A stretch of DNA of 64,000 bases from positions 9,984 to 73,983 of the forward strand of contig JBBQUV010000005.1 in NCBI GenBank assembly GCA_038212075.1, read 5' to 3'. The translations under genes were made by a program, and so were the position numbers. Below the pieces are notes generated by a model. That model did no database searches. It saw only the letters and a program-made list of their open reading frames with translations, and was not told where the DNA came from. The stretch is from Minisyncoccia bacterium (GTDB lineage Bacteria > Patescibacteriota > Minisyncoccia > Phycocordibacterales > Phycocordibacteraceae). Positions 6,391-16,824 of the stretch are shown one piece after another; within the stretch, counting starts at the first letter, position 1, and every line of letters begins with the position of its first letter.

Positions 6391-8667
6391 ATGCTTAAAA
6401 GTGGCAAGGCACATTCGCTAAGACGACTTAAAGACGGTGGCTGTCTCGTGCCTCCATTTTTTGTGTGTGATGCAACGTGGTCAGAGGGAGAGATATTGAA
6501 AAAGATAGATACCAGCCTACCAGGTGTTGAGTATTTCGCTGTTCGCTCTTCAGCAGCGAATGAGGATTCAAGTGATCGATCTTTTGCGGGGCATTTTTAC
6601 ACTGCAATAGGAGTAGGTCGTCGAGATATCATTGCAGAAGTAGGTAAGGTGCAAAAGTCCTACGAAGAAATGTCAGGTTCGGTAATCGTGCAGGAGTTCA
6701 TATCCAGCGATACGGCTGGCGTCATGTTTACTGAAGTGGGCAAAGACACTGTAGTCATAAATTCAACAACCGGTCTTTGTCGACCAGTCGTTGAGGGTGG
6801 TGCGTGCGATGAATATTTGTTGAGCAAAGATGGTACTTTGGTACGAAAAACGATTCCTACAGAAAAAGGAGTACTTCTGTTTAAAGATCAGAAGATTATT
6901 TCCGAAAAGAGTAGTGAAGAATCTCTCAATGAGTCGAAGATAAGCCAATTGATAAAGGTAGGTGCTAAGATTCAGGATCTTTTTGACTCGCCTCAAGATA
7001 TTGAGTGGTGTTTCAAAGATGGCGAATTATATATTCTTCAGTCTCGCCCCATTACGAGGGATTTTAAAGTTGGAAAGGAAGAATATTTTGATAGTGCCAA
7101 TATAGCAGAAAGTTATTCAGGTATTGTTCTTCCTCTTACTTGTTCATTCGCCAAGACGGTATACGAACAGGTCTACAAGGACCTCCTTCACATGTCTGGG
7201 GTCTCAAGAAAAAAGATAGAGCGTCATTCCGAAGTCTTTGAAGGCTTACTCGGTTTTTTCTATGGAAGGATGTACTACAACATGAACAATTGGTATCGCA
7301 TGGCGGAGTTCGTACCCGGGTATAGTAGGAACAAACAGAACTTCGAGTTAATGATTACGAGCAACATCAAACAAGATGTTGCAACGGTAATAAGACCCTC
7401 TTTTGGTCTACGAGCTCTGTACCCCGTAATTGTTGGCCTAAAGGTAGCTGCGTTCGGAGTTACTTCATCGAGTTTTAAATCGGGAGTAGAGTGCCACTTA
7501 CGTCTCCTTAGAAATCAGGACTTCAAACGTCTAAACTATAAAGACTCAATCACTTTATTTGAAAATATAAATAAGAATCTATTGCGCCGATGGTACATCA
7601 CGCTTGAGAACGATTTTTTTGTGATGACGTATTTAGGAATTCTGAGAAAGCTACTTAACGAAGATCTATTGCAAAAAGCCATTACGTTTCCAAGTAAAGC
7701 AACTGAACAGGTTGATGCGCTGTCGGCTCTTAGTAAGCAAATGAGTGACGTTAGGGAAGTATGGCAGGCTGTCGAATCTGACGATGTTAAAAGATTTAAG
7801 GTGGAACTGGAACGTAATGCAAAACTATCTGTCGCTCTTGATACCTATCTACACACATTCGGTGGAAGATTTGCAAGCGAGTTAAAGCTTGAATCAATCG
7901 GCGTGGATGAAGATCCAAAAAAACTGTTTGTAGTTTTAAAGGCCTATCGGAATTACAAGCCTAAATCAGGCATCGTTCAACCAGATTTATCCTTACCTTT
8001 TTTCAAGAAGCTTATCGTAAAGATAATAGTGGGTAAATTCAGGAAATACGCCTCTCGCCGTGAGGACTTTCGTTTGTTGCGTTCTAACACGTTTGCTATG
8101 GCCAGACATCTCTTCAGACATATGGGTACCTTGCTGGTAAGGGGGGGTAGCATACAAAACCAGGGCGATGTGTTTTATTTAACAATGCAAGAAATACTCG
8201 ATCCACGAGCCCATACGCATAGCCATCTCACAGAGGTCGTGGCAAAGAGAAAAGAAGAATACGTCTCCTATAAAGATACCGTTCCACCATCTCATTTTTC
8301 GACGATTAATGGTCAGCTACCCCCAGTCGTAGCTTCAGCCATGTCCAAGCAACATACAATTCATGCTCGCCCAGCATCTCCCGGAACGGTGAGAGGTCGA
8401 GTAAAGGTATTTAGAGAGTTTTCAATGCCAAATCAAGTAGACTTTGATATCTTAGTGACATCACACACTGATCCGGGGTGGACGTCACTTATCGCGTTAT
8501 CTAAAGGGCTTATTATTGAGCATGGCGGGGTGTTGTCGCATGCTTCAATTGTGGCCCGAGAGTTGGGCATACCAGCCGTAATTGGTGCCACAAATATTCT
8601 CAATACACTAGTAGACTACCAAACAGTAGAAATGGACGGATCGACTGGAGTAATTAATTTATCGTAG
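6391..8667 (+). CDS. PEP-utilising-enzyme family protein (PEP synthase / rifampin-phosphotransferase-like ATP-dependent phosphotransferase)
   Basis: 758 aa; PPDK_N/ATP-grasp block FAVRSSAANEDSSDRSFAGHFYT; C-terminal swivelling phospho-His domain GGVLSHASIVARELGIPAVIG; no PEP/pyruvate-binding TIM-barrel segment evident. Confidence 0.7.
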   Translation: MLKSGKAHSLRRLKDGGCLVPPFFVCDATWSEGEILKKIDTSLPGVEYFAVRSSAANEDSSDRSFAGHFYTAIGVGRRDIIAEVGKVQKSYEEMSGSVIVQEFISSDTAGVMFTEVGKDTVVINSTTGLCRPVVEGGACDEYLLSKDGTLVRKTIPTEKGVLLFKDQKIISEKSSEESLNESKISQLIKVGAKIQDLFDSPQDIEWCFKDGELYILQSRPITRDFKVGKEEYFDSANIAESYSGIVLPLTCSFAKTVYEQVYKDLLHMSGVSRKKIERHSEVFEGLLGFFYGRMYYNMNNWYRMAEFVPGYSRNKQNFELMITSNIKQDVATVIRPSFGLRALYPVIVGLKVAAFGVTSSSFKSGVECHLRLLRNQDFKRLNYKDSITLFENINKNLLRRWYITLENDFFVMTYLGILRKLLNEDLLQKAITFPSKATEQVDALSALSKQMSDVREVWQAVESDDVKRFKVELERNAKLSVALDTYLHTFGGRFASELKLESIGVDEDPKKLFVVLKAYRNYKPKSGIVQPDLSLPFFKKLIVKIIVGKFRKYASRREDFRLLRSNTFAMARHLFRHMGTLLVRGGSIQNQGDVFYLTMQEILDPRAHTHSHLTEVVAKRKEEYVSYKDTVPPSHFSTINGQLPPVVASAMSKQHTIHARPASPGTVRGRVKVFREFSMPNQVDFDILVTSHTDPGWTSLIALSKGLIIEHGGVLSHASIVARELGIPAVIGATNILNTLVDYQTVEMDGSTGVINLS

Positions 8668-8670
8668 GCC

Positions 8671-9675
8671 ATGAATATCAAACCATATCAAAATAACTCT
8701 TTCGCCAACGAGCTCAGCGATCTCCTGCGGAAGAAATATGGAAACAACAAAAACTTCGACTATTTTTTAAGTGACTTCAGGAAGGCGTTTAGCTTTTGTA
8801 TTGATAATGAGAATGTAAATTTTCAACCAATTGCTGGGTTTGAAGCAGAACAATTGCGTGCACATATCGCTCTCATTGTTGATAAAAGATTACCAACAGG
8901 TGAGGCATTTTTTGGCTTCCTAGAAGCTCCTGAAGACGCCTCGATATTCAGTCTAATGTGGAACAGTCTAGTGCAAGAAGCTCGTGACAAAGGAATTTCG
9001 ATTCTCAAGGGTCCTGTAAACGGGAGCATCTGGCATCAATATAGGTGTGTCAAAGAAACAGACGGCTCTAACTTTTTTAAAGCAGAATTATTTTGCGAGC
9101 CTTACTACTATGATTTTCTTGTCTCAAACAAACCAACCACCGAAGTGCTCTACTACTCAGCTTCTCGGGAACATTTCGATATCGTGTTGCGAATGATCAG
9201 TGAAGCTTCGTACAAGAAACTTGGTGCTTCCGGCTTTTCTATCAAGGCGACGAAACAGGTCACCCCTGAAGAGATGCAAACGGTAGCGAACATCTCCAAA
9301 ACAGTCTTTCATAGTAGTTGGGGATATACCGAACTGAATGAGCGAGAGTTTATGCAGCTCTATTCGCCGGACAAATTAAGTTCACATCTTAATACGCTGT
9401 ACTTGCTCTATAAGGGGAGAGAAATCATAGGTTTTTGTAGTACTTCCAAGGAAGATGATACAACTCTCATTCTAAAAACAATCTGCATTTTGTCACCATA
9501 TCAAGGTTTAGGTTTAGGAAATGCTCTGGCATATAAAATACATCTCGACGCCAAGGAAGACGGTTTTGAAAAGATGGTCTACGCTCTGATACGAGAAGGT
9601 AATAACATAAAGAATTTCCCCAAAGAGGAGGCTGTGATTTTTCGACGCTATGCAGCCTTCGAATTTCACATATAA
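8671..9675 (+). CDS. hypothetical protein with C-terminal GNAT-like acyltransferase fold (possibly tandem GNAT)
   Basis: 334 aa; GNAT motif-A-like YQGLGLGNALAYKI near the C-terminus; no other motif recognised. Confidence 0.4.
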   Translation: MNIKPYQNNSFANELSDLLRKKYGNNKNFDYFLSDFRKAFSFCIDNENVNFQPIAGFEAEQLRAHIALIVDKRLPTGEAFFGFLEAPEDASIFSLMWNSLVQEARDKGISILKGPVNGSIWHQYRCVKETDGSNFFKAELFCEPYYYDFLVSNKPTTEVLYYSASREHFDIVLRMISEASYKKLGASGFSIKATKQVTPEEMQTVANISKTVFHSSWGYTELNEREFMQLYSPDKLSSHLNTLYLLYKGREIIGFCSTSKEDDTTLILKTICILSPYQGLGLGNALAYKIHLDAKEDGFEKMVYALIREGNNIKNFPKEEAVIFRRYAAFEFHI

Positions 9676-10409: not shown

Positions 10410-10886
10410 ATGATATCTAAAAACACAATCTGTATTTGGTTTGATAAAGATGCGGAAACTGCGGCGAATTTTTACGCCGCTACTTTTCCGGATAGCAACG
10501 TAGTTAGTGTTTTCCGTGCGCCAAGTGATTTCCCTGGTGGTAAGCAGGGCGACGTACTAACGGTAGAGTTTATTGTTTGTGGAATTCCCTGTATCGGTTT
10601 AAATGGCGGTCCTATATTTAAGCAAAGTGAAGCTTTTTCCTTTCAGATTGCAACGGACAATCAGGAAGAAACAGATCGCTACTGGAATGCGATTGTTGAG
10701 AATGGTGGTCAAGAGAGCGAATGTGGATGGTGCAAGGATCGCTGGGGAGTATCGTGGCAGATTACGCCACGCACCCTTACCGAGGCGCTTGCCGCCGGTG
10801 GCGCAGAAGCAAAACGAGCGTTTGACGCGATGATGACTATGAAAAAAATCGATGTAGCCGCTATTGACGCCGCACGACGGATTTGA
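10410..10886 (+). CDS. VOC/PhnB-like protein (Pfam '3-demethylubiquinone-9 3-methyltransferase' domain family)
   Basis: 158 aa; WGVSWQI block and size typical of that glyoxalase-fold family. Confidence 0.55.
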   Translation: MISKNTICIWFDKDAETAANFYAATFPDSNVVSVFRAPSDFPGGKQGDVLTVEFIVCGIPCIGLNGGPIFKQSEAFSFQIATDNQEETDRYWNAIVENGGQESECGWCKDRWGVSWQITPRTLTEALAAGGAEAKRAFDAMMTMKKIDVAAIDAARRI

Positions 10887-10980
10887 GAGCACGCTTCTCG
10901 ATTATATGTATTTCAAATCAAAAAAGATTTCGTTATTCATTTTAGGTACCACCAGCATCGTTGCAGACAGCTGATAAACA

Positions 10981-11010
10981 AAACCCGCCGGACACTTTTG
11001 GTGCCGGCGG
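10981..11010 (-). terminator. rho-independent terminator hairpin (T-tract on minus strand; serves gene 11035-11436 and possibly bidirectional)
   Basis: CCCGCCGG...CCGGCGGG stem followed on the minus strand by TTTTGTTTAT. Confidence 0.5.
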
Positions 11011-11034
11011 GGGAGGGACCGTGATCACGGGCGA

Positions 11035-11436
11035 TCATGGTCCCCAAGTGAAGTAGATGCAGAACGTCGACGGAGCCAAAACCCAACCGTCGGTCCACCA
11101 ACCACCCAAACCGATCACTCGCTTTTGAGCGATGTAATCGTCGCGGGCATCGATGAGGTTTCGATAGTCGACCCTGTAGTGGAAGTGGTCTTCCAGATCC
11201 ACCATCCTCGAGTCGAGGTAGTTGTAATACACCGTCGACACTACGAGATCGGCGAGCAGTATTCCAACTGCGATTTTCGTCCACCTCGCATGCTTTGTGG
11301 TCACGATGAACGCCGTGAGCACACAAACAATTAAAACAAAGCCGAAGAATGTAAGCACGAGTTTCTCCTGTGCTGGTGGGTTACCTGTCGCGGAACTAGC
11401 GAAGTTTATAGTAGCATGTATATATAAATATGTCAA
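11035..11436 (-). CDS. hypothetical membrane-anchored protein (TTG start as listed; true start uncertain)
   Basis: 133-aa ORF with one hydrophobic helix (LVLTFFGFVLIVCVLTAFIV) and a W/G-rich C-terminus; terminator hairpin 25 nt downstream. Confidence 0.35.
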   Translation of the reverse strand: MTYLYIHATINFASSATGNPPAQEKLVLTFFGFVLIVCVLTAFIVTTKHARWTKIAVGILLADLVVSTVYYNYLDSRMVDLEDHFHYRVDYRNLIDARDDYIAQKRVIGLGGWWTDGWVLAPSTFCIYFTWGP

Positions 11437-11475
11437 TATTCCTTATTTCGATTCTGCGGGTGGTAGAGTCTGCAC

Positions 11476-11589
11476 ATGAATCTAAACGCACATAGGTACG
11501 ACGTCATTGTCGTTGGTGGGGGAGCGTCCGGCATGATGGCCGCCGCTATAGCGAGCGCACGTGGCAAGCGCAATGTTCTTCTTTTTTAA
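11476..11589 (+). pseudogene. 37-codon 5' fragment duplicating the start of the HI0933-family flavoprotein gene at 14105
   Basis: MNLNAHRYDVIVVGGGASGMMAAAIASARGKRNVLLF* vs MEDSTPKRYNVIVVGGGASGMMAAAIASARGKRVLLLEKN; about 85 nt near-identical (50-nt perfect run) then diverges; TAA at 11587. Confidence 0.6.
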
Positions 11590-11761
11590 CGACCCTGAGG
11601 GTCCGAACTTGCTCATAGTTGTTGTGCTGGCAGCAATCCTATACCTAGTATCTTTAGCGGTATATTTTTTCGATTTCCCAGCTACTGGTCTCAAGAGACT
11701 TTTAATGGTTATTCTCGTTCAGATACTAATAGTCACCGGCCTGTATTTTTTCTTGAATTAG
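11561..11761 (+). CDS. hypothetical small 2-TM membrane protein
   Basis: 66-aa ORF, two hydrophobic helices; lies between the gene fragment and the 654-aa ORF. Confidence 0.3.
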   Translation: MASAMFFFFNDPEGPNLLIVVVLAAILYLVSLAVYFFDFPATGLKRLLMVILVQILIVTGLYFFLN

Positions 11762-11834
11762 GGCCCACTTCATACTGAACATTTTTATCCACAAGCATAT
11801 TAGTTTGGGTCTGTAGACATGTTACAGTCACACC

Positions 11835-13799
11835 GTGGAAGCCCCTATTCCAGAAGCGACACCTCCCATTCCGCCAGTGCCTGGCGCCCACCCGGAAATA
11901 AGCATAACTCTATTTGCTGGCATCATTATTCTGGAAATCTTGCTCGTTTGCGTATTTGCCTCGTGGAAATTTGGATTTCTGACGGAAAAAAATACTGTAG
12001 TAAATAATGGTGAAGAAACAAGCACCGTAACAGAAGACACTGGAACATCGCAAGGGAACTACAATTCTTCTGATCGATTTTTGACTCCACAACAGTTTCA
12101 AGTTGCGCGATTAAGTCTTGGCAGTACCACCCCCAAAGTACTCAAAGACAAGTATGATCTGTTCGTGCTCAGCCAACCGTACGAAGATATTGATACTAAC
12201 GGCGTTACCACCTATTACGAAGATGGGACTTTGTCGTCGGGAACATATGCGGGATACCATGTGATTATTGCTCGTATTACACCCTATGACAACGATGGAC
12301 CTGGCAGTAGCGACGAGTACTACACCTTCATCACCAAGGATTACCGCTCATTTATTGTATTTACCCCAGAGATAGGAAAACTACCGAATCCGACATGGTT
12401 TAATACTGCGCGCGTTGTCCAAGCGGATCATTTCGCAACTCATTTTCCAAACACTATTCCGTTTGGGAATTTTGTTCTTACAAAAAGTGAATGGTTTAAC
12501 TCAGATGTTTTGTATGATCACAACAATACTTCTCCTGTAGGAACGGTTGAACTCACGAGTCCCGATCCACACCTGAAAATTTTCTCTGAGCCAGAAGAAC
12601 CTCTTACTAACCTTGAAGATACTCTTACAAAGACGCTTGCCGATGCTGCAGCCGCGTACATTTATGGGCGGACCACCGTTATGGTGCGCGATGAAGCAGG
12701 GATTGGATTTGTTTACTCGCTTTCCTTTGCGCACTTTGCAAATCCAAATGATCCAGCAGGTCGTATTCCAAACACCGAGTACCGCTACGGATATTTGGGA
12801 GTAGCTCAAAACCAGCCGACGCTCTATTCTTCCTATGCAAAATTAATTCCTTACGGTTGCGAAGGCGCAAACTCCTCTGAGAGTTACGTTCTTAAGAATA
12901 TCTCTGATGCTGATGTCCGCGACACGGGTATTAAGTGGCAGGGTGTTGAGTTGTATGCCTTTGCGAACGCACGTAATCCACTCACCGAGGCCCATTATCG
13001 TCAAAAGGTTGCAGCATACGCCGCGATATATAAGAACGGAAGCGAGTCCGCCACTCTGGATACACTTGCGTTTACTGACTATATAGCAAAAACCCCAACG
13101 CTTCTTTTTAAAGATCCGTGGGGCAGATGGGTGGGTGTTGGAGAAGATGAATACAAGGTAACTGGAGGTTGCGGGAAACCGGTGATTTACCTGTATCCTC
13201 CTCAATCGACTGAGGTATCAGTGCAATTTATGCAATCACCGAGGTTCACTACTGATATACCAATCTATGAAAATGGTTGGAAGGTACTCGCGGAAACGAC
13301 GGGAGCACTTCACGACTTGCAGCCAGCCCTGACTCCTTGCGAGACATTGGCTACCAACGTATTTGGCTCCGAATATGCGGGAGCAGCCTGCAAAACAAAC
13401 ACCTACCCATATCTCTTCTGGGCAGGACAAGCAAATGGAAACTACCCAACGCCGACTGGAGGATGGATTGTGGAGAAGGCAAACATAGAATCGTTTCTAG
13501 GATCAAAATTGACTGAGCTTGGCTTAAATGACACAGAACGCAATGACATGCTCTCATTCTGGGTGCCGCAACTCATGAAAAAGAATAGTCCGTACTATCG
13601 GTTGGCTTTCTTTCAAACGAGCGAAATGAACCATTTCATACCTATGATTATTTCACCGCGTCCCGATAGCATGCTCCGACTCTTCCTTGATTGGACACCG
13701 CTTTCTACTCTTCCGGATCATCTCCCACAGCCACAACAGTTACATCAATTCCACCGGTCTGGATTTGCGGTAGTCGAGTGGGGAGGTCTTGATCGTTAA
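11835..13799 (+). CDS. hypothetical large exported / membrane-anchored protein
   Basis: 654 aa; Pro-rich N-terminus then one TM/signal-anchor (ISITLFAGIIILEILLVCVFASW); large hydrophilic Y/W/N/T-rich ectodomain; no motif recognised. Confidence 0.55.
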   Translation: MEAPIPEATPPIPPVPGAHPEISITLFAGIIILEILLVCVFASWKFGFLTEKNTVVNNGEETSTVTEDTGTSQGNYNSSDRFLTPQQFQVARLSLGSTTPKVLKDKYDLFVLSQPYEDIDTNGVTTYYEDGTLSSGTYAGYHVIIARITPYDNDGPGSSDEYYTFITKDYRSFIVFTPEIGKLPNPTWFNTARVVQADHFATHFPNTIPFGNFVLTKSEWFNSDVLYDHNNTSPVGTVELTSPDPHLKIFSEPEEPLTNLEDTLTKTLADAAAAYIYGRTTVMVRDEAGIGFVYSLSFAHFANPNDPAGRIPNTEYRYGYLGVAQNQPTLYSSYAKLIPYGCEGANSSESYVLKNISDADVRDTGIKWQGVELYAFANARNPLTEAHYRQKVAAYAAIYKNGSESATLDTLAFTDYIAKTPTLLFKDPWGRWVGVGEDEYKVTGGCGKPVIYLYPPQSTEVSVQFMQSPRFTTDIPIYENGWKVLAETTGALHDLQPALTPCETLATNVFGSEYAGAACKTNTYPYLFWAGQANGNYPTPTGGWIVEKANIESFLGSKLTELGLNDTERNDMLSFWVPQLMKKNSPYYRLAFFQTSEMNHFIPMIISPRPDSMLRLFLDWTPLSTLPDHLPQPQQLHQFHRSGFAVVEWGGLDR

Positions 13800-13849
13800 G
13801 TCAAATAATTGCCGCCCTTTTTAGCTAAGGACAGCGGTATCATAAGCAA

Positions 13850-14026
13850 ATGGAACGAATGCTGGCTGATTTGTGCAAGGTCCTTGCTGCTAAGCCGAAG
13901 GCGCTCACGCCAGACGAACACAGAGATTTTACTGACTGGATAAACGCTGCTAAGGAATCTGATGAGCGCACGAAGCGAATAGGAAAAGCGTGCGTGATGC
14001 TGTTGTCCGGTAAACGGCACCCCTGA
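13850..14026 (+). CDS. hypothetical small ORF (58 aa), below the ORF-track cutoff
   Basis: ATG 13850 to TGA 14024-14026; basic, helical-looking; no RBS; weak. Confidence 0.15.
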   Translation: MERMLADLCKVLAAKPKALTPDEHRDFTDWINAAKESDERTKRIGKACVMLLSGKRHP

Positions 14027-14104
14027 TTCTAGCCATCTACGTCGACCAAAATTTGAGCATCGTATCTGGGACACGAGGCTAATTGTGATAGGTTATAGCA
14101 ACAC

Positions 14105-15355
14105 ATGGAAGACAGTACTCCCAAGCGCTATAACGTTATTGTCGTTGGTGGGGGAGCGTCCGGCATGATGGCCGCCGCTATAGCGAGTGCGCGCGGCAAG
14201 CGCGTGCTTCTTCTTGAAAAGAATTCAAGACTTGGCGAGAAGCTTGCCATATCCGGCGGCGGCCGTTGTAACATACTGAACGCTGAAGAAGACGAGAAAA
14301 AACTTCTTGCACAGTATGGAAAATCAGAACAATTTCTCTACTCAACGTTTGCGAAGTTTGGAATGAAGGACGCGTATACATTTTTTGAAACAAACGGCTT
14401 GCCGCTCATCGTAGAAGGTCGCAAACGCGCATTTCCCAAAACTGAAAAAGCAAAGGACGTGGTACGGACGCTAGAGCGTGCTCTTACCAAGGGAAATGTT
14501 GCTATCCGCCTGAAGTCTCCTGTGACAAAAGTACATCACGAACACGGACGCATTACTTCTGTTGAAGCGGGCGGAACTGCATACTCTGCTGACTCCTACA
14601 TCTTTGCGACTGGAGGATTTTCTCGCCCCGAGACCGGTTCAACAGGTGACGGCTTTTCTTGGCTTACGAGTCTTGGGCACACGTTTCATCCGCCAACCCC
14701 AACCATTGTCCCGCTGAAATCAAAAGAATCGTGGGCGAAAGAGCTCTCCGGTACTTCCGCGCCAGACGCAAAGATTACGTTTTCAGTGGAAGGTAAACGT
14801 GCTTTTTCTGCGATTGGTTCAATTCTTTTTACCCATACCGGAATATCAGGGCCCACGATTCTAAATTCTTCTGGAAAGGTGGCGGATCTTCTGCAAGAAG
14901 GGGAAGTAACGGCAACCATAGACCTTTTTCATAAAACCGACGTAGGTACTCTTGATAAGGTACTTTCTGATGTATTCGATCAGAACAAAAATAAATCGTT
15001 AAGAAATGCGTTCAGAACCTTCGTTCCACCAGGAATGAGTACGGTGTTGCTTTCACTGCTTCCTGATATTGATGTGGAAACAAAAGTACACAGTGTGACT
15101 AAAGAAAATCGACGACGACTGGTAGTTCTTGTGAAATCGTTACCGCTTAGTATCACGGGGCTCATGGGGTTCAATAAAGCGGTTGTCGCAGATGGAGGTG
15201 TACCGCTTACGGAAATAGATATGCGAACCATGCGTTCGAAGAAAGTAGAAAACCTTTTTATCATCGGCGACTTACTCCACATTGCAAGACCGTCAGGTGG
15301 CTACTCACTGCAGTTGTGCTGGACGACTGGACACGTTGCTGGTACAGCCATATAG
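14105..15355 (+). CDS. HI0933-family FAD-dependent flavoprotein (BaiN / aminoacetone-oxidase family)
   Basis: 416 aa; N-terminal FAD dinucleotide fold VIVVGGGASGMMAAAIASARGKRVLLLEKNSRLGEKLAISGGGRCNILN, which is the family signature. Confidence 0.8.
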   Translation: MEDSTPKRYNVIVVGGGASGMMAAAIASARGKRVLLLEKNSRLGEKLAISGGGRCNILNAEEDEKKLLAQYGKSEQFLYSTFAKFGMKDAYTFFETNGLPLIVEGRKRAFPKTEKAKDVVRTLERALTKGNVAIRLKSPVTKVHHEHGRITSVEAGGTAYSADSYIFATGGFSRPETGSTGDGFSWLTSLGHTFHPPTPTIVPLKSKESWAKELSGTSAPDAKITFSVEGKRAFSAIGSILFTHTGISGPTILNSSGKVADLLQEGEVTATIDLFHKTDVGTLDKVLSDVFDQNKNKSLRNAFRTFVPPGMSTVLLSLLPDIDVETKVHSVTKENRRRLVVLVKSLPLSITGLMGFNKAVVADGGVPLTEIDMRTMRSKKVENLFIIGDLLHIARPSGGYSLQLCWTTGHVAGTAI

Positions 15356-16203: not shown

Positions 16204-16824
16204 ATGAAATCATATTACTGGTTGGTTGGTATCGCTGTCGTTGTTATCGGACTTATCGCATGGGTACATGTTGGCGCACCGCAATTGGGCGCTGATACGG
16301 CAAAGACCGTTTCCGATAACGTCTCACTAGCCGGTATTCAAACAGGTGCGGCACCATGGGCTCCTGAAATAGACAACCTCAAGGCACGGCTTTATGCAGA
16401 CGGACTTCCGCTCCTTGCGGAAGAGGGGGTAGTGCTTCATATCCACCAACATCTCGACGTTTTTCTCGATGGTGTTCCGCTCGCTATTCCGGCAGATATC
16501 GGTATCGATGAACACACGAAACACATCGCTCCTATTCATGTGCACGATACTTCAGGAATTATTCATGTTGAATCACCCTTTGTCGCCAGCTTCACTCTGG
16601 GGCAAGTGTTCGATGTGTGGGGCGTGCGGTTTTCAAAAGACTGCATTGGAGGGTATTGCACCGACACAGCACACCACCTGAATATTTTTGTGAACGGAAC
16701 ACGCTATGACAGCGATCCTCGCACCCTAGTGCTTCAGCCACACCAAGAAATAGCGATTACGTACGGCACCGATTCGGAAACACCGAAGATTCCAGCGAGC
16801 TACGTATTTCCGGAAGGATATTAG
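16204..16824 (+). CDS. hypothetical secreted His-rich protein
   Basis: 206 aa; N-terminal signal/TM; repeated HxH clusters (HIHQH, HVHD, IHVES). Confidence 0.45.
   Translation: MKSYYWLVGIAVVVIGLIAWVHVGAPQLGADTAKTVSDNVSLAGIQTGAAPWAPEIDNLKARLYADGLPLLAEEGVVLHIHQHLDVFLDGVPLAIPADIGIDEHTKHIAPIHVHDTSGIIHVESPFVASFTLGQVFDVWGVRFSKDCIGGYCTDTAHHLNIFVNGTRYDSDPRTLVLQPHQEIAITYGTDSETPKIPASYVFPEGY

Follow-up and report, generated by a model that had tools for sequence, protein, structure and literature searches.

A repeated Rossmann-motif segment at the 5′ end of a flavoprotein gene in a Minisyncoccia bacterium, a possible scar of insertion-duplication

We analysed a stretch of 64,000 nucleotides (nt) from a metagenome-assembled contig of a Minisyncoccia bacterium (GenBank assembly GCA_038212075.1, contig JBBQUV010000005.1, positions 9,984 to 73,983), hereafter called the window. 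Within it, part of the 5′ coding region of a HI0933-like flavoprotein gene occurs twice as a direct repeat on the two sides of an insert that carries unrelated genes. We interpret this locus as a one-off recombination scar, and among the explanations considered we tentatively favour a Campbell-type insertion-duplication by a single reciprocal crossover as the most likely. The original prediction for this DNA had seen in it the footprint of an insertion, or of a recombination event, at the 5′ end of this gene, and this general picture is supported by our analysis. The two 5′ ends consist of the following features.

11461-11469, + strand: P_A, an extended −10-like box TGGTAGAGT (TGgTAGAGT) of leaderless type, 6 nt before the ATG of the fragment
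11476-11589, + strand: stranded 5′ fragment of the flavoprotein gene, an ATG open reading frame (ORF) of 37 codons and a stop, encoding MNLNAHRYDVIVVGGGASGMMAAAIASARGKRNVLLF
11497-11583, + strand: repeat copy A, 87 nt, with the identity tract at 11506-11555
14086-14099, + strand: P_B, promoter-like region of the intact gene, with TGaTAGGTT 10 nt from the ATG and an overlapping TATAGC 5 nt from the ATG
14105-15355, + strand: intact flavoprotein gene of the HI0933-like/aminoacetone-oxidase family, full length, 416 amino acids (aa)
14129-14215, + strand: repeat copy B, 87 nt, with the identity tract at 14138-14187

Comparison of the window with itself by blastn returned the copy A/copy B pair (E 1e-25) and no other repeat. 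The ungapped alignment joins 11501-11583 to 14133-14215 at 90 % identity and can be extended in frame to 11497-11583 and 14129-14215, where 77 of the 87 bases are identical; the copies are spaced 2632 nt apart. The near-identical repeat that had been predicted was thereby recovered, including its perfect run of 50 nt (11506-11555 = 14138-14187). The upstream ORF had been described as a copy of the first 37 codons of the gene. The ORF is present at 11476-11589, but the segment shared with the intact gene comprises codons 8-36 only and similarity between the copies ends past 11583. The promoter regions, the first seven codons of copy A (MNLNAHR) and the first eight of copy B (MEDSTPKR) gave no alignment. 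Since the two copies align only over codons 8-36, the promoter itself is not a duplicate, and the idea that the promoter-proximal region had been duplicated has to be replaced: neither the promoters nor the N-termini are homologous and they look like two alleles of the 5′ end. A lax tblastn search with six members of the family found no further flavoprotein remnant in 11400-14110 beyond 11476-11583.

The shared segment codes for the GxGxxG/Rossmann motif, and conservation of this motif was considered as the cause of the repeat. It was ruled out, because the identity of the orthologous 87-nt cores to copy B is only 60-79 % in 22 related genomes and the perfect runs shared with it do not exceed 20 nt.

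The identity of the intact gene agrees with the original prediction. Its product matches PF03486 with 248 bits (cutoff 50, E 9e-74), PF22780 with 98.9 bits and TIGR00275 with 387 bits (cutoff 183.8). The closest relatives are 83 % and 74 % identical, and relatives were found only in metagenome-assembled genomes of uncultured Parcubacteria/Paceibacteria of the Candidate Phyla Radiation (CPR). Residues 1-36 of the closest orthologue (P0122) align with the residues of the stranded fragment at 75 %. The fragment is stored in the public protein collection as a predicted protein of 37 aa (P0295, NCBI source); this record is an annotation artefact, a gene fragment.

Both 5′ ends look like genuine gene starts. 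A TGnTAG..T element precedes each ATG as predicted, 6 nt away in P_A (11461-11469) and 10 nt away in P_B (TGATAGGTT, 14086-14094), and alignment showed the two promoter regions to be non-homologous. P_A (TAGAGT-6-ATG) has the modal leaderless geometry, and the spacing of P_B is less typical. The N-terminus of copy A also has the length seen in the two closest orthologues (MSSGENRYDV in P0122, MSSDTNTYDV in P0123), and that of copy B is one residue longer. A TAnnnT box stands 6-7 nt before the ATG of many flavoprotein orthologues, for example TATAGT-6-ATG in three related loci (L013, L014 and L016) and TAGTGT-7-ATG in three others (L026-L028). When we took the first 60 codons of each open frame and counted TAnnnT boxes standing 5-8 nt ahead of any ATG or GTG there, 24 of the 65 long ORFs in the window had one, compared with 3.2 % of internal in-frame start codons. 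This suggests that leaderless expression is widespread in the genome, with roughly one in three genes of the window carrying a −10 box near a candidate start. Other examples in the window lie at 16204, 16870, 26058, 39972 and 52362, often in the form TATACT-6-ATG. Because the box is conserved before orthologues and common in the genome, P_A is predicted, very likely correctly, to be still active in front of the fragment.

The distribution of differences between the copies is uneven. In the central tract none of 16 codons differs, although 14 of the 16 have degenerate third positions, whereas six of nine adjoining codons do (Fisher p = 5e-4), and identity shifts sharply at the edges of the 50-nt tract. 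At the third positions of the central tract the relatives match copy B in 38 % of cases on average and in 69 % at most. Of the six isolated differences between the copies, five are synonymous changes at third positions; divergence of the flanks therefore took place at a time when both copies were coding, and the flanks do not represent a fresh duplicate in decay. A simple recent duplication in place, followed by decay, is excluded by these mostly synonymous flank differences together with the identical central tract. Judged from this pattern, the central tract is apparently either a segment homogenised later or the exchange site itself, between two diverged and once-functional 5′ ends. The differences point to recombination between two diverged alleles of the flavoprotein gene 5′ end.

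The related genomes also give some polarity to the differences. At position 11500 all 22 relatives share an Asp codon with copy A, and none of them has the Asn of copy B. Codon 10 of the intact gene (14132) is correspondingly Asn, and the Asp of the relatives recurs in nearly all top homologues (xDVxVxGGG). At positions 11572-11575 the state of copy B is present in 18-22 of the 22 relatives and that of copy A, an AATG cluster, in none. The ancestral-looking halves would accordingly be the left part of copy A and the right part of copy B, with the derived halves being B-left and A-right. As the ancestral states sit at 11500 in copy A and at 11572-11575 in copy B, the native gene may be read as A-left plus B-right, which is exactly what a single crossover predicts.

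The scenario that we favour would start from a resident flavoprotein gene with the promoter P_A, the N-terminus MNLNAHRYDV and the present gene body. A circle of about 2.63 kb would have entered the cell carrying a truncated and diverged 5′ end of such a gene, with P_B, the N-terminus MEDSTPKRYNV and the Rossmann-motif core to about codon 36. A crossover within this coding core, made by RecA or by a recombinase acting in trans, would have integrated the circle, and the present 50-nt identical tract would mark the crossover point. The old promoter and 36 codons would have been left behind as the 37-codon pseudo-ORF at 11476-11589, with the promoter probably still firing into the insert. The flavoprotein gene would have stayed whole, its promoter and first 10 codons now being those that came in with the circle. 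The insert would have brought an ORF with two predicted transmembrane (TM) helices, the gene for a 654-aa surface protein anchored in the membrane and the 58-aa OmdA ORF, of which the latter two have leaderless-type promoters of their own. In principle, recombination between the direct repeats could remove the insert and leave a hybrid gene.

We infer the crossover and the circular intermediate from several observations. The duplicated segment flanks the insert, with the upstream copy truncated (residues 1-36) and the downstream gene intact and full-length. The repeat is unique and its copies are far more alike than the orthologous cores of the relatives, its identical tract is sharply bounded and the promoters and N-termini beside it are non-homologous. 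The largely synonymous differences, the apparently chimeric ancestral pattern, the modal geometry of P_A, the ortholog-like N-terminal length of copy A and the lack of any other flavoprotein remnant in the insert also speak for a Campbell-type event, as do two results from the relatives, namely that none of the 22 has a second copy and that the interval between the flavoprotein gene and a PF06983 gene varies among them.

The survey of relatives bears most directly on whether a second copy of the gene once stood here. A scan of contigs for relatives of the flavoprotein gave 23 loci, the closest 69 % identical, with poor synteny. Within 10 kb on either side, each of the 22 related genomes has one flavoprotein gene with one 5′ end, and neither a second copy nor a 5′ fragment was found. 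An intact second paralogue in relatives, which the original prediction had named as the finding that would speak for decay of an old tandem copy, was thus looked for and is present in none of them. Tandem paralogue decay in its simple form finds no support in this survey, nor in the search of 11400-14110 for degraded gene-body remains, which found none. A more elaborate version combines the relic of a second full-length copy, either a tandem paralogue or a resident gene beside an acquired xenologue, with gene conversion. A deletion or a replacement would have removed codons 37-415 of the upstream copy and either introduced the 2-TM, 654-aa and OmdA genes or left them in place, and a short non-crossover conversion tract would later have homogenised 50 nt of the most conserved segment. 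The mostly synonymous flank differences fit this history, in which both copies were once functional coding sequence; the sharp identity tract suits conversion as well as crossover, and the composition of the insert is host-like. On the contig of the closest orthologue an OmdA gene directly follows the flavoprotein gene, and because of that order the OmdA ORF in the window could be what is left of an ancestral flavoprotein-OmdA pair. The ORF is not necessarily a fragment, however, as it has its own start, its own −10 box and stand-alone relatives of 58-75 aa. This history also takes a minimum of three events, namely a duplication or an acquisition, then a deletion and a conversion; there is no other trace of the lost 1.1 kb and no genome among the 22 with two copies, and the chimeric ancestral/derived pattern is not predicted by it. 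We consider it somewhat unlikely.

Several side observations concern the surroundings of the gene in relatives. The OmdA gene on the 2.3-kb contig of the closest orthologue (83 %, ENA ERZ27296333) encodes 174 aa and overlaps the flavoprotein gene upstream of it. In L026 an OmdA-domain gene lies at 8549-8881, 2.3 kb downstream of the flavoprotein gene; in the window the OmdA ORF is directly upstream. The gene before the closest flavoprotein orthologues encodes 132 aa; it is DUF305 in L026-L028 and has no assigned family on the P0122 contig, and a search of the window for a DUF305 homologue found none. Between the flavoprotein gene and a PhnB-like gene (PF06983) lie 0, about 1.9 or about 3.7 kb of cargo that differs from locus to locus (L013 11242-11725, L014 11227-13144, L016 11242-15435). 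This cargo includes tandem genes for exported proteins of about 290 aa, and in some genomes the PF06983 gene is inverted. Because the interval varies from 0 to 3.7 kb among these three loci, the neighbourhood appears plastic in the group and looks like a local hotspot of rearrangement.

The insert occupies about 11590-14104 and carries the following features.

11573-11761, + strand: small 2-TM ORF (candidate gene), 62 aa from the ATG at 11573, or 50 aa if started from the TTG at 11609 behind GAGGG
11820-11828, + strand: extended −10-like box TGtTACAGT, 6 nt before the GTG of the 654-aa gene (TACAGT with spacer 6 in the motif scan)
11835-13799, + strand: gene for a 654-aa protein of a Patescibacteria-wide family, with an N-terminal TM helix at residues 25-47
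13838-13843, + strand: −10-like box TATCAT, 6 nt before the ATG of the OmdA ORF
13850-14026, + strand: 58-aa ORF with an OmdA/YdeI domain (PF13376, 32.7 bits against a gathering cutoff of 25.6, E 7e-8)

The 2-TM ORF overlaps the 3′ end of the fragment ORF and has a positive in-frame dicodon score. It had no Pfam or PHROG match and no homologue in the related loci, and the public collection does not list it. The 654-aa protein had been described as an orphan with no domain. The second part of this description stands, as no Pfam domain was found, nor any NCBIfam or PHROG match or any PDB match by fold or sequence. The protein is not an orphan, having 213 homologues at E<=1e-3, nearly all in Patescibacteria and the closest with 47-48 % identity. 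Its AlphaFold2 model is confident, with a predicted local distance difference test score (pLDDT) of 82.5. Residues 446-651 share 34 % identity with a portion of a BspA-family surface protein encoded on a Ruminococcus albus plasmid. Family members have in common invariant Cys, Trp and Pro residues and, at the C-terminus, a conserved module of about 210 aa with the consensus GGCGKPVIYLYP...VEWGG; this module is also present inside the R. albus protein and in an uncharacterised Terrestrivirus protein. We read the 654-aa product as a predicted membrane-anchored extracytoplasmic protein. Three of its homologues stand in three different gene contexts, none beside a flavoprotein gene and none like the locus in the window. 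Because these contexts differ from one another and from ours, there is no conserved cassette. The 58-aa ORF, previously listed as a plain ORF, turned out to carry an OmdA domain. The match spans positions 23-60 of the 60 in the PF13376 profile, and among the relatives of the ORF are proteins of 58-75 aa that stand alone as well as longer ones, of 100-200 aa, in which it corresponds to the C-terminus.

It had further been proposed that the promoter of the fragment was captured to drive the inserted genes. Such capture is not needed, because the 654-aa gene and the OmdA ORF have their own leaderless-type promoters, TGtTACAGT-6 nt-GTG (11820-11837) and TATCAT-6 nt-ATG (13838-13852), which match the promoter pattern of the genome. 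Read-through from P_A could still occur, as there is no terminator on the + strand between 11589 and 11835.

A number of results weigh against a Campbell-type event. A check of GC and codon usage for a foreign insert gave no foreign signal: the GC content of the insert is 0.460 against 0.475, by tetranucleotide distance it ranks at the 68th percentile among 2.5-kb windows and each of its ORFs has a positive in-frame dicodon score, which makes it indistinguishable from the host by GC, tetranucleotide profile and dicodon usage. Searches of the insert against Pfam, NCBIfam and PHROG revealed no integrase, transposase or other recombination gene, Pfam scans of 38 larger ORFs across 0-32 kb of the window found no recombinase, and the insert has no terminal inverted repeats. 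The collections searched contained no strain-level relative, no empty site and no circular form, and the repeat core was absent from two metagenome scans (with an exact 32-mer and a codon-degenerate 44-mer). The polarity depends on a single site to the left of the tract and a single 4-nt cluster to its right, and the cluster at 11572-11575 could equally be a truncation junction at the TTCTTCTT microhomology, or pseudogene decay. Finally, the contig is a metagenome assembly and both junctions are known from the assembly alone. Among mobile elements, the target-site duplication of a transposon or insertion sequence was ruled out: the repeat is imperfect and 87 nt long (against 2-15 bp), there are no terminal inverted repeats and there is no transposase. 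The insert gave no PHROG hit, no match to phage DNA and no meaningful match to viral contigs, and Rfam returned nothing in 10700-14300.

The microhomology at the end of the repeat could also be the mark of a different process, homology-facilitated illegitimate recombination with linear DNA that came from a related cell. This DNA would have carried, in this order, the 2-TM, 654-aa and OmdA genes, P_B and the flavoprotein gene, with its right end recombining homologously within or beyond the gene. Its left end would have been joined illegitimately at about codon 36, at TTCTTCTT (11576-11583), stranding the resident 5′ end, and the identity tract would stem from the same heteroduplex or be of later date. 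The abrupt stop of homology at a T/C-rich microhomology, with eight shared bases at 11576-11583 after the 4-nt mismatch cluster, would be explained in this way; no recombinase gene is required, and the composition of the insert fits a close relative. The illegitimate joint must nevertheless coincide exactly with the end of the homologous core. A donor sharing 50 identical bases should also align in the promoter and the first codons, where no alignment was obtained, and the intact gene would carry the right flank of the donor, yet that flank looks ancestral. We regard this course of events as improbable.

The origin of the contig raises the question of an assembly artefact, in which a separate molecule or a strain variant, such as a free 2.6-kb circle or the locus of a second strain, was threaded in through the shared 50-mer. 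An exact repeat of 50 nt is shorter than the k-mers of some assemblers and longer than those of others, and the source is a metagenome-assembled contig. On the other hand, at 11556-11600 the sequence runs into the 2-TM ORF and not into flavoprotein sequence. A mis-join of two intact alleles cannot create this stretch, and so the truncated 5′ fragment beside the 2-TM ORF exists in a real molecule. An artefact could affect at most the integrated state and not the components, and we judge it very unlikely.

A Campbell-type event would be in keeping with several known systems, none of which matches the locus in every respect. Insertion-duplication of this type is known mainly as a laboratory tool and from the integration of plasmids or phages. 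It resembles the locus in that a duplicated segment flanks the insert, one copy is 3′-truncated and the other complete, the copies appear to be hybrids of the two parents and recombination between the repeats could reverse the event. It differs in that here a natural event would have used about 87 nt of homology (50 nt identical), with a circle that can only be deduced. A relic of a paralogue altered by ectopic gene conversion would likewise show a short perfect tract within diverged copies, one of them a fragment; at our locus, unlike such cases, relatives have no second full-length copy and the ancestral and derived states appear to be arranged chimerically.

The SXT/R391 group of integrative and conjugative elements (ICEs) integrates at the 5′ end of prfC (PMC4344509). 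The likeness to our locus lies in an element placed in the 5′ end of a housekeeping-type gene, in att-like direct repeats and in a gene that stays functional. The att-like trait is present here, as target-derived direct repeats (87 nt with the 50-nt identical core) flank the insert. SXT reportedly supplies a new promoter and 5′ coding sequence to its target, as described in a paper of 1999. In contrast to these elements, which measure about 100 kb, the insert is 2.6 kb long and genes for an integrase, an excisionase or transfer are lacking; an autonomous element related to it was not found, nor was the insertion seen in any other genome. Because the defining integrase is absent, we do not class the locus as an integrative element of the SXT/R391 kind. 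A further parallel is offered by the cis-mobilisable elements (CIMEs) known from Streptococcus thermophilus (ICESt1/CIME) and by decayed integrative islets, att-flanked segments that have no recombination genes. Like our locus, these are small cargo between target-derived direct repeats and have no recombinase of their own, but for the insert described here no cognate integrase or parent element is known. One could go further and see in the 2.63-kb segment a small non-autonomous integrative cassette of Patescibacteria that targets the Rossmann-motif core of HI0933-like flavoprotein genes, provides a surrogate leaderless promoter and N-terminus to keep its target functional, delivers a surface protein and is excised reversibly through the 50-nt core. 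We think it highly doubtful that such a cassette exists.

To the left of the repeat lies one further ORF.

11035-11436, − strand: small membrane-protein ORF, 133 aa as the longest ORF, with the likely start at GTG 11358

The start at 11358 follows an AGGAG with 5 nt in between, and a sigma70-like promoter with a −35 and an extended −10 element (TTGACA-17-TACTAT) lies at 11436-11408. The in-frame dicodon score is positive and the GC content at third codon positions is 0.60, against about 0.43 for the neighbours. A search of 5.8 billion proteins found no homologue, and the ORF is missing from the public collection. Its terminator is apparently the GC-rich hairpin at about 10984-11011, behind which the minus strand has a T-run.

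What we describe is one recombination scar from one metagenome-assembled Parcubacteria genome, and we regard it as an ordinary event and not as a new kind of system. It would gain greater weight only if the same cassette, or an empty site together with a circular form, turned up in other genomes. For annotation, the practical consequence is that a 37-aa “protein” in the public record is a gene fragment. The repeat also offers a clean example of a crossover or conversion tract within a conserved motif, and the leaderless −10 box pattern of the window may be of broader use than the scar itself. To our knowledge, few recognisable mobile elements have been described in CPR bacteria. The locus adds a small data point on how these genome-reduced bacteria may gain surface-protein genes while a resident gene stays undisrupted; the cassette interpretation, if true, would be a first glimpse of the shuffling of surface-protein genes in CPR bacteria.

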